Shown here: piece after piece, positions 1,283-57,305 of the stretch
Position numbering within the stretch: the stretch's first letter is position 1
How the letters are laid out: each line of letters starts with the position of its first letter
Assembly: GCA_964016885.1 (NCBI GenBank)
Contig: OZ024740.1
Location: forward strand, 262,756,001-262,820,000
Length of the DNA: 64,000 bases
Source: Eledone cirrhosa
Lineage: Eukaryota
Direction of reading: 5' to 3'
The notes under the pieces: model-generated
Told to the model about the DNA's origin: nothing
Databases searched by the model: none
The model's input: the letters and a program-made list of their open reading frames with translations, nothing else
Program-made: the position numbers and the translations under genes

Positions 1283-1349
1283 TATTTTATCTGATGAGGA
1301 CGTACTGTTGAAGATAGATCAGTACCTCTGAAATATGTATAATAAAATA
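1283..1349 (+). ncRNA. Minimal type I hammerhead ribozyme motif
   Basis: Stem I TATTTTAT (1283-90) pairs with ATAAAATA (1342-49). CTGATGA core at 1291-97; stem II GTACTG/CAGTAC; GAAA at 1330-33; short stem III TATGTA; predicted ATA cleavage after 1341. Confidence 0.75.
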
Positions 1350-1528
1350 TACTTGATCACACGAATGTCTATTTTTGTTAATATTTTGAATTAATATATT
1401 TATATATATATATATATATATATATAAACGGAAAAAATGAAACGAAATTTCATTTGCCACTCTTAGTACGGCTGTTACTTAAATATAAGTATGTACACGT
1501 ACATACATATATGTATACAGACGTACAG

Positions 1529-1955
1529 TAGTATGTATATATATATACATACTTGCACACATATATATATATTTGTGTGTGTGAGTATGTGTGTGTATAT
1601 ATATATATATTTGTGTGTGTGTATGAGTGTGTATATATATATATGTATATACATATATATATATACACACATATATATATATATATATATATATATTTGT
1701 GTGTGTGTATGAGTGTGTATATATATATATGTATATACATATATATATATACACACATATATATATATATATATATATATATATATATATATATACATAT
1801 ATATATACATATATATATATACATATATATATATACATATATATATATACATATATATATATACATATATATATATATATATATATATATATATATATAT
1901 ATACATATATATATATATATATATATATATATATATATATATACATATATATATA
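1529..1955. repeat. (TA)n/(TG)n compound microsatellite
   Basis: Directly visible. It is the source of the spurious YIYI/CVCV ORFs. Confidence 0.95.
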
Positions 1956-1994
1956 CATAATATAAGATCAAAAGATGGTTAAAGGAGTTCCATA

Positions 1995-2066
1995 TATTTT
2001 ATTATGCGCATTTCAAAAACAAACATCATCATGCAATAATATTTGTGTTTTCATCAGATAAAATAG
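1995..2066 (-). ncRNA. Hammerhead ribozyme motif (inverted arm)
   Basis: Reverse complement of the 2183-2255 motif: TCATCAG at 2051-57, TTTC at 2011-14, TGCGCA at 2005-10. Confidence 0.75.
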
Positions 2067-2182
2067 GAGAACATGATATGAAGGCTAAAAAACACTTGTG
2101 GATAGTGCAGTTTTAAATCAACATATGTTGATTTAAAACTGCACTATCCACAAGTGTTTTTTAGCCTTCATATCATGTTCTC

Positions 2183-2255
2183 CTATTTTATCTGATGAAA
2201 ACACAAATATTATTGCATGATGATGTTTGTTTTTGAAATGCGCATAATAAAATAG
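2183..2255 (+). ncRNA. Minimal type I hammerhead ribozyme motif
   Basis: 9-bp stem I CTATTTTAT/ATAAAATAG; CTGATGA at 2192-98; AU/GU-rich stem II; GAAA at 2235-38; palindromic stem III TGCGCA; ATA cleavage triplet ending at 2246. Confidence 0.8.
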
Positions 2256-53493: not shown

Positions 53494-53957
53494 ATTGGTG
53501 GATTGACTGCCGTTTTATCAGTAAGCCAAGCGTCCACATTGCTTGTTTTATGCTCTTGGAAAATTTCAAAAGGAAACATATAAAGTGGATATTAATTTTG
53601 CTTAATATTAATTGAAAAGAAACCTATTTTATTTGATACTCATTTATTTCAACAGCATCCGTAATCAGGGCCGAACCTAATATAATTAGAATAAGCCCTC
53701 CTCAACTGCGCTTAGCACTAGAATAAACTACTCAATTATGTTCTTCTTTTAGGATAAGCATGCCGATGACAACCGCTTTTTCATTCCATATTTACTGAAT
53801 AATTTCAGTATTAATAGTCATGGTAGAAGCAGTCATGTACGTTAATTCTTACCTCTCATTACATTGTTTATTTAGATTTATCTCTGCTTGTCTTTCGGAT
53901 ATATATATATATATATCAAGGCATGTATTGAGTTAGAAACTCAAAATAGTAAATTAG

Positions 53958-54152
53958 CTCTCTCTCTCTCTCTCTCTCTCTCTCTCTCTGTCTATATATA
54001 TATATATATATATATATATATATGCGTGTGCGTGTGTGTGTGTATGTGTGTGTGTGTGTGTGTGAGAGAGAGAGAGAGAGAGAGAGAGAGAGAGAGAGAG
54101 AGAGAGAGAGAGAGAGAGAGAGAGAGAGAGAGAGAGAGAGAGAGAGAGAGAG
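53958..54152. repeat. (CT)n-(TA)n-(TG)n-(GA)n compound microsatellite
   Basis: Directly visible. Confidence 0.9.
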
Positions 54153-56338
54153 ACTATCGTATATTTATGAAATACAAACGATTTAAAATTGTTCATAGAG
54201 AATATTATTTGGAAGGTGTAACGGTGTGTAGAGAGTCATGTGTGGTGTGCCTGAGTAGCTGTTATCTGAGAAAGCAGGCTGCTATGACGGAATCACATAA
54301 CGAAGAAGTGAACAAACACATTATTTCGCTCAATACAATACTACAGCAGACTGAATAATTATAACAAAGTTGGCAAGATATTGATGAGGCACGTCTTTCT
54401 AGAGTCCAAATCGAAGTATGAGCCACAAGTAGAATGAACTAGGTGCCTTCCGATGAACAGCAAATATCCTACAGCATTAATCCATGAACTAACTATTAGA
54501 AACTAACTATAGAAATGGCACCAGTCACTAAAAGAGAAAGTCAGATGATGCCATTATTATCCTTATTGCGTGTGAAATTGAGAAAAATCATCTACTTTTT
54601 CATGAGTATAACATGTCTGTGCAAGAAGGCTCTTTGAATCACGTCAGAAAAGTAAGACACTGTATGTATTGAAATTTGCCGCACCTACTAAGACCCCGCT
54701 CTTCTGGCCTATCACGCCGGGATCAGGTACTGATCGTACATTGCGTAAGTATGTGTTATCAGGGCCAGATAAAGAAAAGGAGGTAACAAGAAATCTTGGA
54801 GGTTATTACGGGAAAGGAAATGAAACCCGATTCATATACGACAGGAAATATGCATGTTACAGTCAACAGCATGATTGATATTGAGAAGGCGGGACCCATC
54901 ATCATTGATGGTCCAATTGACACAGGCAATATATATTTCACGAACTAACTATTGACAAAACTTGTCCAAAGAAATATTTGCTATTGCTTTAGAATCAAAT
55001 ACCGTTGCAGCATCGCTTGTAAATTTGGGTAGAACTACCTACGGACAATTTACCTCAAAGGGACACAAACGAGTGATATAGGCTTTGGGTAAAACAATGC
55101 AAGGTTCTAATAACAAAACATAAAACAGATGGCGTAACAATATCTATTGCTGGCGGTTCAAAACAAACTGCATATAAATTCACGAAATATGAAGGCTGAT
55201 CAGAAGTTTGTCGAATGTCTCACGATGGGCCCTAGAAATTGATCCCTGATCTCTTGAACGACAATAACTACAGATCAACTTACACGTAAGAAGAAGAGGA
55301 AGAAGGGAAGAAGGTAAATTACTCTCTGAAAACCTCGTATTCTTGGTTGCACGTTCTCCCCTCGCACCTTATCGCCAGTAAGCGTCTCTGGGATTATCGC
55401 ATTCATGAGTTCGTTACATAACTACGGTCGTCTTCAAAGGGCTCCACAGACCACATTCAATCTTCGGTCGGTTATATCATTAAAAGTGAACCTGATTTGC
55501 AAAGCCTTATTTAATATTCACATCAGAGAATGTTGTCCCAAATAGATTTTTGTATGTATAATATTAACAGCGAGAAAAGTTGCTGTCTGAGAAAAAAGGT
55601 GAAAGTTGCCGAACATGCAACTGGGAGAAAAATGATGGTCCAAATCGTCAGATACTGATTTCACAGAAACAGGTTGTAAATTATCCAGCCGATTTTATGT
55701 ACAACCTCTAATAGCAGGATCGTGTCCATGTAATCTAATACTGAGGATCACTTACGCCACATAATCTGCCGCTGGGGCTTAGGTATATGTGGTTTCATAA
55801 CGGATATCTTCCAAAGTATGTAAATGAGATGAGAATCACCATAAGAAATGCGGTCTGATATTCTGGACTTCACATCATATCACGAAAATTGACTGGTGAC
55901 AATTGTTCCTCTCTAGGATTATCACTGAAGTCAACAGGTTTACCATTTAAAGCCCAAAACTTGGCCATAACCATCAACTATTCTTAAAGTTAATGTAAGG
56001 AAATATGCGGATCCTATATTTTTCACATGTTCAGCTGAATATTATGATTTCAAGTAATTGGAAACTTGGTCATCCCTTCACCGTATCACTACATGGAAAA
56101 TCTAAAATGTTTAACCTGTTCTTTTAAAATGAACAATCACAATATTTCGCAGTAATTCATACTTTAAACATAATACAAATGGAATATAATTAGTTTAATT
56201 ATATGGTATGTTATGCTTGCCCAATGGTGAGCCAAGCTGCTCCGGAGTTAAACCTGTGTATTCGCAGGATCTATCTATCTATCTATCTATCTATCTATCT
56301 ATCTATCTATCTATCTATCTATCTATCTATCTATCTAA

Positions 56339-56697
56339 GGCGGTGGTTTAGGAGTATCGGTAGAGCGTCAGACATCAAGCTTTGCAGTATAGAGTTATGA
56401 CCCTTTACTTTCTGAGTTCAAATCCCGCCGAGGTTAAATTTGCCTTTCATCCTTACGGAGTCGATAAATGAAAATACCAATAATTGTTTCTAGTTTTGGC
56501 AGAAGGCCAGCAATTACCCAGTACATTACTGGTACTTTATTTTATCGACTCTGTAAGGATGAAAAGCAAAGTTAACCTCGGCACCAATAATGCACTGTCG
56601 TAATAGCTGGCCTTGTGCTAAAAGTAGAAACATTATAAAGTACCAGTAATGCACTGGGTAATTGCCTGCCCTATGCATAAAGTAGAAACAATTATTT
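56339..56697. mobile_element. Cluster of Meta-like SINE pieces in both orientations
   Basis: A + copy at 56339-56480, a - fragment at 56483-56582, and two + 3' ends to 56697. Confidence 0.7.
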
Positions 56698-56849
56698 TCA
56701 ATAAAGAAATCTCTCTCTCTCTCTCTCTCTCTCTCTCTCTCTCTCTCTCTCTCTCTCTATATATATATATATATATATATATATATATATATATATATAT
56801 ATATATAATAAAGAAACATCTCTCTCTCTATATATGTATATATATATAT

Positions 56850-57305
56850 ATATTGTTATACTTTGGGAGGGTCATGTTGCCAATAAGAAACACACGCACC
56901 AGATGCTTTCACTTCAATTTATTATATATTTATACATTTATAAATTTCTGGTTGGTTGGTTGGTTCCACAACCAGATAGTTGTTTATATATAGTCATAGT
57001 TCAGAAACAAAATGGCGTAGGACAGAACAAAGGAGAGGCACAGAAACAAAGAAAGGAATCCCCAGTCACTGAAGAGGTCACAGAGTGTGTGACGAAAGAA
57101 CTACGACTATATATAAACAACTATCTGGTTGTGGAACCAACCAACCAACCAGAAATTTATAAATTTATAAATATATAATAAATTGAAGTGAAAGCAACTG
57201 GTGCGTGTTTTTGTTATTGGCAACATGACCCTCCCAAAGTATAACAATATCGGTTTCAACACGATTTCAGATAAATAATCTTGGTAAACAAATTCAGAAA
57301 CGAAA
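56850..57305 (+). mobile_element. Fold-back PLE-type element containing an HHR
   Basis: 153-bp inverted repeats at 56850-57002 and 57098-57250, a ~55-bp tail, and (TA)n flanks. Confidence 0.8.
57064..57108 (+). ncRNA. Minimal type I hammerhead ribozyme motif
   Basis: AGTCA-CTGAAGA-G-GTCACA gagtg TGTGAC-GAAA-GAAC-TA-CGACT. The inverted arm reads TGACT, which restores full stem I pairing. Confidence 0.75.

Follow-up and report, generated by a model that had tools for sequence, protein, structure and literature searches.

Stubs of Penelope-like elements and hammerhead-bearing tandem repeats in TA microsatellites of Eledone cirrhosa: likely products of one RNA copied twice

A 64,000-nucleotide stretch of the genome of Eledone cirrhosa (GenBank assembly GCA_964016885.1, contig OZ024740.1, positions 262,756,001 to 262,820,000 of the forward strand; this whole stretch is the window, in which coordinates are given) holds short microsatellite-bounded elements in which an inverted arm precedes a body with an unpaired tail, and most of which carry a minimal hammerhead ribozyme. 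The locus raises the question of what these elements are and how an inverted arm and a one-sided tail come to be made. A preliminary description took them for one dispersed family of fold-back retroelements; the present analysis divides them into stubs of coding Penelope-like elements (PLEs) and three tandem repeats, with a hammerhead or in one case a hammerhead-like core, that lack an open reading frame (ORF), all in TA microsatellites and likely to have arisen through cuts in both strands of (TA)n and the copying of one RNA twice from two fixed starts.

The assembly comprises 3.0 Gb and is rich in (TA)n. Self-comparison found the microsatellite-flanked inverted arm, body and unpaired 3' tail at 1956, 14808, 25259, 25849, 28027 and 56850, and the same layout in a 516-bp array (minus strand) and a coding PLE at 15114, so that the common architecture proposed earlier was seen at all eight. 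The tails measure about 30-76 nt, the inverted arm of the 14808 element merely 11-17 nt, and the elements at 1283 and 25640 have neither arm nor tail. The primary sequences had been called mostly unrelated, which holds only in part: 1956 and 25640 are 96% identical, and the 14808 element shares 78% with the coding PLE over 65 nt.

Coding relatives of the stubs and tandem repeats without a frame

By their continuity with coding copies, the elements at 1956/25640, 14808, 25259 and 56850 are 3' end stubs of coding PLEs, and 1283 is probably a truncated coding PLE as well; the earlier suggestion of extreme truncations of PLE families holds for these and fails for 25849, 28027 and the array. Copies proved abundant, and the four families are continuous with a single ORF encoding a reverse transcriptase (RT) together with a GIY-YIG endonuclease at its C-terminal end; they show pseudo-long terminal repeats (pLTRs) in partial tandem, an inverted 5' copy, an optional tail and a pLTR hammerhead, though a degenerate one in the 14808 family. 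In copies of 1956 (family A; loci L007, L011 and L025) the tail leads into an ORF with DKT and YRDD. In L364 the 25259 sequence (family B) is followed directly after its tail by a 786-codon frame with RWR, DKT and a CxCX5C linker, and a second pLTR follows, so that two pLTRs surround the ORF; L007 has DKT and RWT, its linker lying beyond the locus end. Since this motif set matches the diagnosis of the Hydra clade (DKT, an RWK-type motif, a CxCX5C linker and TA insertion), families A and B are assigned to that clade by motif criteria; Pfam searches of the Hydra ORFs gave no relevant match. As far as the available text of PMC8557442 goes, L364 and L007 resemble published Hydra clade PLEs in DKT, the CxCX5C linker, a short ORF, the hammerhead and TA insertion, and differ in having RWR or RWT for RWK and in leaving tens of thousands of stubs where few families are described.

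Long copies of 56850 (L092, L096) have the endonuclease end upstream, with GIY-YIG recognized by motif in L092; in long copies of 14808, GIY-YIG lies upstream in L172 (Pfam), and Pfam also detects it in the coding PLE at 15114. Translations of 15114, 14808 and 56850 contain a CX2-5CxxC linker (with a variant first residue in L172) and CCHH in the C-terminal endonuclease; they are called Neptune-type here, a label that rests on translated motifs. The link of the 1283 family is weaker than those of the other four: L354 has a Hydra-type ORF in the same orientation, at 52% to L007. Exact matches to one 3'-end motif, which are lower bounds, number 21,124 for family B, 8,450 for family A, 4,803 for the 14808 family and 82 for the 56850 family.

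In the window, family A supplies a palindromic stub at 1960..2352 (+), with arm 1960-2122, putative start site 2123, hammerheads at 2192 (+) and 2057 (-), a tail at about 2290-2352 and a 25-nt deletion, and a second stub at 25642..25802 (+), running from the start site to the inner 3' site with its predicted cut after 25759. Family B supplies 25262..25463 (+), with a tail at about 25388-25463 and a putative start site at about 25328 within hammerhead loop II, so that the copy retains just the 3' half of the ribozyme. The Neptune-type stubs are 14813..15046 (+), with an 11-nt arm, a body beginning at the putative start site at about 14821, a degenerate U3-A8/GCAA hammerhead at 14864 and a tail at about 15014-15046, and 56853..57304 (+), with arm 56853-57002, a body from the putative start site at about 57003, a hammerhead at 57069 and a tail at about 57251-57304. 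The 5'-truncated coding PLE at 15118..17635 (+) retains an RT remnant, a CX4CxxC linker and GIY-YIG, with an inverted pLTR at 15118-15437, U3-A8 hammerheads at 17466 (+) and 15221 (-), putative start site 17424 and a tail at about 17575-17635. The 1283 element, a 3' pLTR stub of a Hydra-like PLE family, spans 1198..1392 (+), with its hammerhead core at 1291 and predicted cut after 1341.

On their sequence features, 25849, 28027 and the 516-bp array are non-autonomous, non-LTR retrozyme-like repeats with PLE insertion marks, the array fitting the definition of non-LTR retrozymes only loosely; the earlier reading as retrozyme-like elements stands for these three and falls for the stub families. 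They occupy 25851..26305 (+) (arm 25851-25945, hammerhead 26083, tail about 26268-26305), 27997..28417 (+) (arm 27997-28117, hammerhead 28213, tail about 28389-28417) and, as 2.3 units, 26737..27991 (-) (arm 27920-27991, tail 26737-26797). In each the tail continues into the beginning of the following unit, the monomers being 342-347, 316 and 516 bp, respectively; head-to-tail tandems were found at 9/26, 9/22 and 22/26 distinct loci for the 316-, 342-347- and 516-bp families. The units of 25849 and 28027 contain a type I hammerhead, the GC content of the tandem families is 0.32-0.41, and the longest frame of the array is 59 codons. No coding continuation from the tandem monomers was found in about 25-55 loci of each family, PLE matches in those loci being neighbours, none of them continuous with a monomer. 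As in PLEs, there are two fixed 3' ends and inverted arms; the 5' ends fall at scattered points of the monomer and many copies are longer than one unit, which suggests a circular or multimeric template.

Two side observations concern such repeats. Several inner-site-primed copies of the 316-bp family (L421-L450) end at monomer position 0-6, shortly beyond the outer site, which fits either a circle blocked by the second primer or a linear RNA start. In L401 seven units of about 482-490 bp stand in tandem, each with an intact hammerhead, and represent a further retrozyme-like family.

Fixed 5' ends, extra G and two priming sites

The pile-up of 5' ends was counted in four samples of 30 loci picked by tail alone, after two spurious arms on CA repeats (L246, L255) had been dropped. 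Among ends reaching the putative start site, 45/98 stop within 5 nt of it (16/31, 16/21, 9/26 and 4/20), against a background of 3.6% per 11 nt. In three families the site falls on a pyrimidine-A step, with a TATA-like box about 30 nt upstream; the 56850 family has it between NRF1-like and YY1-like words. For the coding PLE the site was predicted beforehand from TATA spacing, and 24/29 incidental copies end between -1 and +14. The letter before the site, counted genome-wide, is in family A G in 2,111 matches, T in 1,581, A in 570 and the native C in 6,885, with 4,417 of 11,147 matches continuing natively; in family B it is G in 3,045 against A in 599 (counts that leave out native T and C), and in the coding PLE G in 493 against A or T in 435. 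Thus G is the most frequent non-native letter in three families, though the DNA template has a pyrimidine there, and at least eight opposite-strand pairs of family B, among the first 100 matches listed, carry G on both ends, 0-6 nt apart. These genome counts supersede a small-sample test for G (14/27 versus 5/31, p=0.005; 11/24, p=0.03 without three ambiguous cases). Capped full-length L1 insertions are marked by an extra G, according to the available text of PMC11702581, and a fixed 5' pile-up with a non-templated G points to a capped sense transcript as the template. Contig depth is highest from start site to tail end; this measures neither copy number nor expression and was not used.

Within a family the outer ends of the arms, like the ends of the tails, keep to fixed positions. 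Of 64 insertions with an arm, 25 have a tail-less arm that extends beyond the tailed body by more than 15 nt in the 5' direction, and 12 bodies stop within the tail, leaving nothing to fold back on; fold-back, which the preliminary description had as the general mechanism, is then often impossible. Sequence held by the inverted arm and absent from the tailed one suggests two complementary DNAs (cDNAs), each with its own fixed priming site: A at the end of the tail and B at its start. In the 316-bp family, an A end is combined with a B end in 9/16 insertions that have an arm, and A+A occurs in 0/16. Purified PLE protein in vitro cuts and extends both strands, starting at two adjacent internal sites independently of the hammerhead (PMC11167929).

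In the available text of PMC3846280 and PMC8557442, self-priming or endonuclease resolution is favoured: in the scheme proposed there for rotifer and Naiad PLEs, the arm would result from snap-back of one cDNA, or be made on antisense RNA, and an endonuclease would trim the hairpin at a fixed inner site. It would account for palindromes that are almost perfect, for the short palindromes naturally present at two start sites, for equal ends at a distance from the start site and for arm-body identity. It cannot yield the arm sequence absent from the tailed body, the tail-only bodies, or G on both ends with a 0-1-nt spacer, and the G sits at the sense 5' end. As the general origin of the arms snap-back is considered improbable, and it may be the route of a minority of events.

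The copying of one RNA from two sites could proceed as follows. The pLTR promoter would yield a capped sense RNA; each cut strand would prime through a 2-4-nt TA match, one at site A and one at site B; if the RNA's 5'-most pLTR is the one used, the copies would run off at the cap after 140-310 nt and would often gain a base opposite the cap; the A copy would either halt at the B complex, giving a tail-only body, or displace the B copy, giving a palindrome; and the two cDNA ends would be joined head to head. The tandem repeats would likely use the PLE enzyme via circular or multimeric RNA.

Several points weigh against this scheme. The start site was picked after data inspection in four families, family A has no clear TATA box, and the pile-up in the 56850 family is weak (4/20). 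In family B and the coding PLE, arm microhomology can explain some of the surplus G, and the omission of native letters bears on the family B ratio. Arm and body end equally in about 26/64 insertions, some of them away from the start site (L269, L273, L278), which snap-back and double priming explain equally well; arms are closer to their own body (median 1-1.5 differences) than to other copies (3-9), which fits one RNA copied twice and also fits snap-back or later conversion. L007 and L222 have a tail on both arms, L436 is a possible B+B case, and later deletion could have shortened some bodies. In the 316-bp family 6/16 insertions have an end at neither site, and the absence of a coding parent for the tandem families was judged on about 25-55 loci each.

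Very high copy numbers, and the many copies that end at the same base, would also suit short copies that are self-propagating non-autonomous families, like short interspersed nuclear elements (SINEs) or palindromic masters, instead of by-products of coding RNA; an internal promoter downstream of the start, such as is known in fly Penelope (PMC2377424), would allow some stubs to be transcribed. Against such propagation, junction letters differ in nearly every copy, so that the palindromes appear to be rebuilt at each insertion; stubs have no upstream TATA-like box, and short and long copies carry common sequence variants. Self-propagation is judged unlikely, even less probable than general snap-back.

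As a separate observation, at 25593-25645 (also in L006) the first 5-10 bases of the family A RNA are repeated, interleaved with (TA)n, just 5' of the body, as if the enzyme had hopped repeatedly between the RNA 5' end and the microsatellite.

Hammerhead motifs and their genome-wide load

The window contains 10 complete or near-complete hammerhead motifs, in agreement with the estimate of about ten made earlier. A strict type I descriptor has 5 window matches, against a mean of 0.1 in 30 shuffles, and a descriptor with relaxed stem I finds 9 motifs; the tenth, at 57069, has one mismatch in the window copy and is intact in most family copies. All seven cleavage positions predicted earlier fall on hammerhead-type motifs, six by descriptor and 57103 by sequence reading; in the window copy of the latter motif, the first pair of stem I is an A-C mismatch. 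A minimal hammerhead had been claimed for every element; most have one, and three depart from it. The 25259 element has the 3' half only, the 5' half lying upstream in long copies; the array core carries mutations in each of the two full units of the window and is intact only in the majority form of the family (where stem II is intact, stem I wobble-rich and stem III mismatched or weak); and GCAA replaces GAAA throughout the 14808 family, a degenerate core. The covarying stems described earlier were borne out, in that 7/20 pairs changed on both sides among related families and 0/500 shuffles reached 7, although the set consists of 11 hand-picked variants whose relatedness inflates the result. 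Among 357 motifs the core pair is C3-G8 in 311, U3-A8, a published PLE hammerhead variant, in 26 (fixed in 3 families), and another combination in 20. Folding of monomers scored 0/8 motifs clearly better than shuffles (z -1.8 to +0.1), as expected if minimal hammerheads are weak, and was not used as evidence either way. Rfam scans gave hairpin-type matches only, with no hammerhead family among the matches listed (150 of 224, and a further 35).

Fifty-five evenly spaced 10-kb stretches, 549,600 bases in all, yielded 53 strict motifs, and each of 5 shuffles gave 0-1, an excess of about 100-fold. This density, about 96 per Mb, extrapolates to about 290,000 hammerheads in the genome (216,000-378,000), or about 256,000 if one array is counted once, and bears out the very high load foreseen earlier. 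With other descriptors, published work counts 120,000 in axolotl, over 6,000 in a coral and, for minimal motifs, as many as 9,000 in Xenopus.

DNA-transposon miniature inverted-repeat transposable elements (MITEs), or hairpins formed by chance where the DNA is AT-rich, would also give inverted repeats with TA on either side. The tails on one side only, the varying arm length, the unbroken passage into RT/GIY-YIG ORFs and the motif excess over shuffles reduce the probability of this origin almost to nothing. Fixed terminal inverted repeats at both ends and a short target site duplication, by which such transposons would be known, were sought; one end is an unpaired tail, and arm lengths span 11 to more than 450 nt. 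For the four families that have coding parents, the MITE reading is refuted.

At predicted cleavage sites no pile-up of 5' ends was found (1/57, 0/36, 1/66 and 0/26; 4/75 in family B, where a hairpin confounds the count; three families uninterpretable), and family B, the most abundant, leaves out half its ribozyme. Both results are consistent with the hammerhead-independent priming seen in vitro, and the hammerhead is likely dispensable for stub insertion.

Neighbouring repeats, known systems and significance

Other repeats lie near these elements. Between TA runs at 26417-26700 there is a 285-bp element with a short imperfect hairpin at its left end, in which no hammerhead was found; more short microsatellite-bounded elements, possibly PLE stubs, lie at 1427-1560 (recurring in L010 and L233), 17786-17985 and 23910-24148 (opening with a 90-bp palindrome). 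Another repeat family often stands tail-to-tail on both sides of one TA run (L002, L023, L129, L139, L150). Since nested insertions gather in TA tracts, the microsatellite load of the genome may be fed by PLE activity. An abundant SINE-like repeat ending in (ATT)n, some copies of which are palindromic, occurs at 8590-8783, 19406-20084, 29153-29376, 34795-34958, 47834-47977 and 56337-56696; it has 112 matches in 550 kb of random DNA and contains what is presumably a tRNA B-box-like word. With 3 head-to-head pairs in the 112 matches and no one-sided tail seen, it was left out of the set. Decayed elements of the type of long interspersed nuclear elements (LINEs) lie at 11489-13360 (-), 30396-33900, 36186-41214, 45881-47200, 48147-53242 and 59378-62584; the frames at 11489, which (ATGT)n interrupts, and 37758-41214 have RT, endonuclease and zf-RVT domains (Pfam).

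Insertion units of endonuclease-bearing (EN+) PLEs, in the available text of Craig 2021 (PMC8557442) and Arkhipova 2013 (PMC3846280), comprise a pLTR, an inverted 5'-truncated copy and an optional tail. The present elements are alike in the head-to-head inverted copy, the one-sided tail, strong 5' truncation and (TA)n targets; their tails are 30-95 nt as against 30-40 nt, and, compared with that text, the 5' pile-up with extra G and the class with the arm longer than the body are found only here. Opposite-strand pairs of minimal hammerheads 100-700 bp apart were described from truncated PLEs by Cervera and de la Pena in 2014, so that the kind of element is not itself new; published minimal hammerheads share type I, a palindromic stem III, an extra base after A9, the U3-A8 core variant and such pairs, and their load of 2,000-9,000 per genome is not strictly comparable with the density found here, since descriptors differ. 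The metazoan non-LTR retrozymes, so far as the available text of PMC7229834 and bioRxiv 10.64898/2026.07.22.740005 describes them, are likewise ORF-less, low-GC tandem monomers with type I hammerheads, proposed to be moved by PLEs; the repeats here carry the PLE arm-and-tail footprint directly, and the 516-bp monomer exceeds the 150-450-bp range. L1 twin priming (PMC11702581, available text) similarly has a second priming on the other cut strand and an extra G at full-length 5' ends; here each family has its own fixed second site, and the two copies can span one and the same stretch, which gives palindromes.

Thus the PLE architecture, minimal hammerheads with opposite-strand pairs and the link between retrozymes and PLEs are already published, and the pile-up and extra G at the start site, the counts for double priming and the hammerhead density go beyond the published accounts found. 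Literature searches, with supplements outside their scope, returned no report of a start-site pile-up, double priming or a cephalopod hammerhead count. A fuller proposal, to which we give an even chance, is programmed double priming, in which a dimer would cut both (TA)n strands and copy one capped sense RNA from two fixed sites to the cap, the promoter-to-tail stub being the main product; the same enzyme would copy ORF-less ribozyme circles, and about a quarter million hammerheads would have been left, perhaps the densest ribozyme load so far found in an animal genome.

PLE papers ask whether sense or antisense RNA serves as the template and by what route the inverted pLTR and the tail on one side arise, and the junction statistics bear on this. 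The cap-like G found where the sense 5' end is fixed, and arms that outreach the body, yield a specific prediction that can be tested in the in vitro PLE system already available. In practical annotation, stubs in their tens of thousands would pass for MITEs or miRNA hairpins, and their ribozymes escape Rfam. Movement of animal retrozymes by PLEs has so far been proposed on the grounds of co-occurrence and trees; finding the arm-and-tail footprint on hammerhead tandems without an ORF is direct sequence evidence for it.

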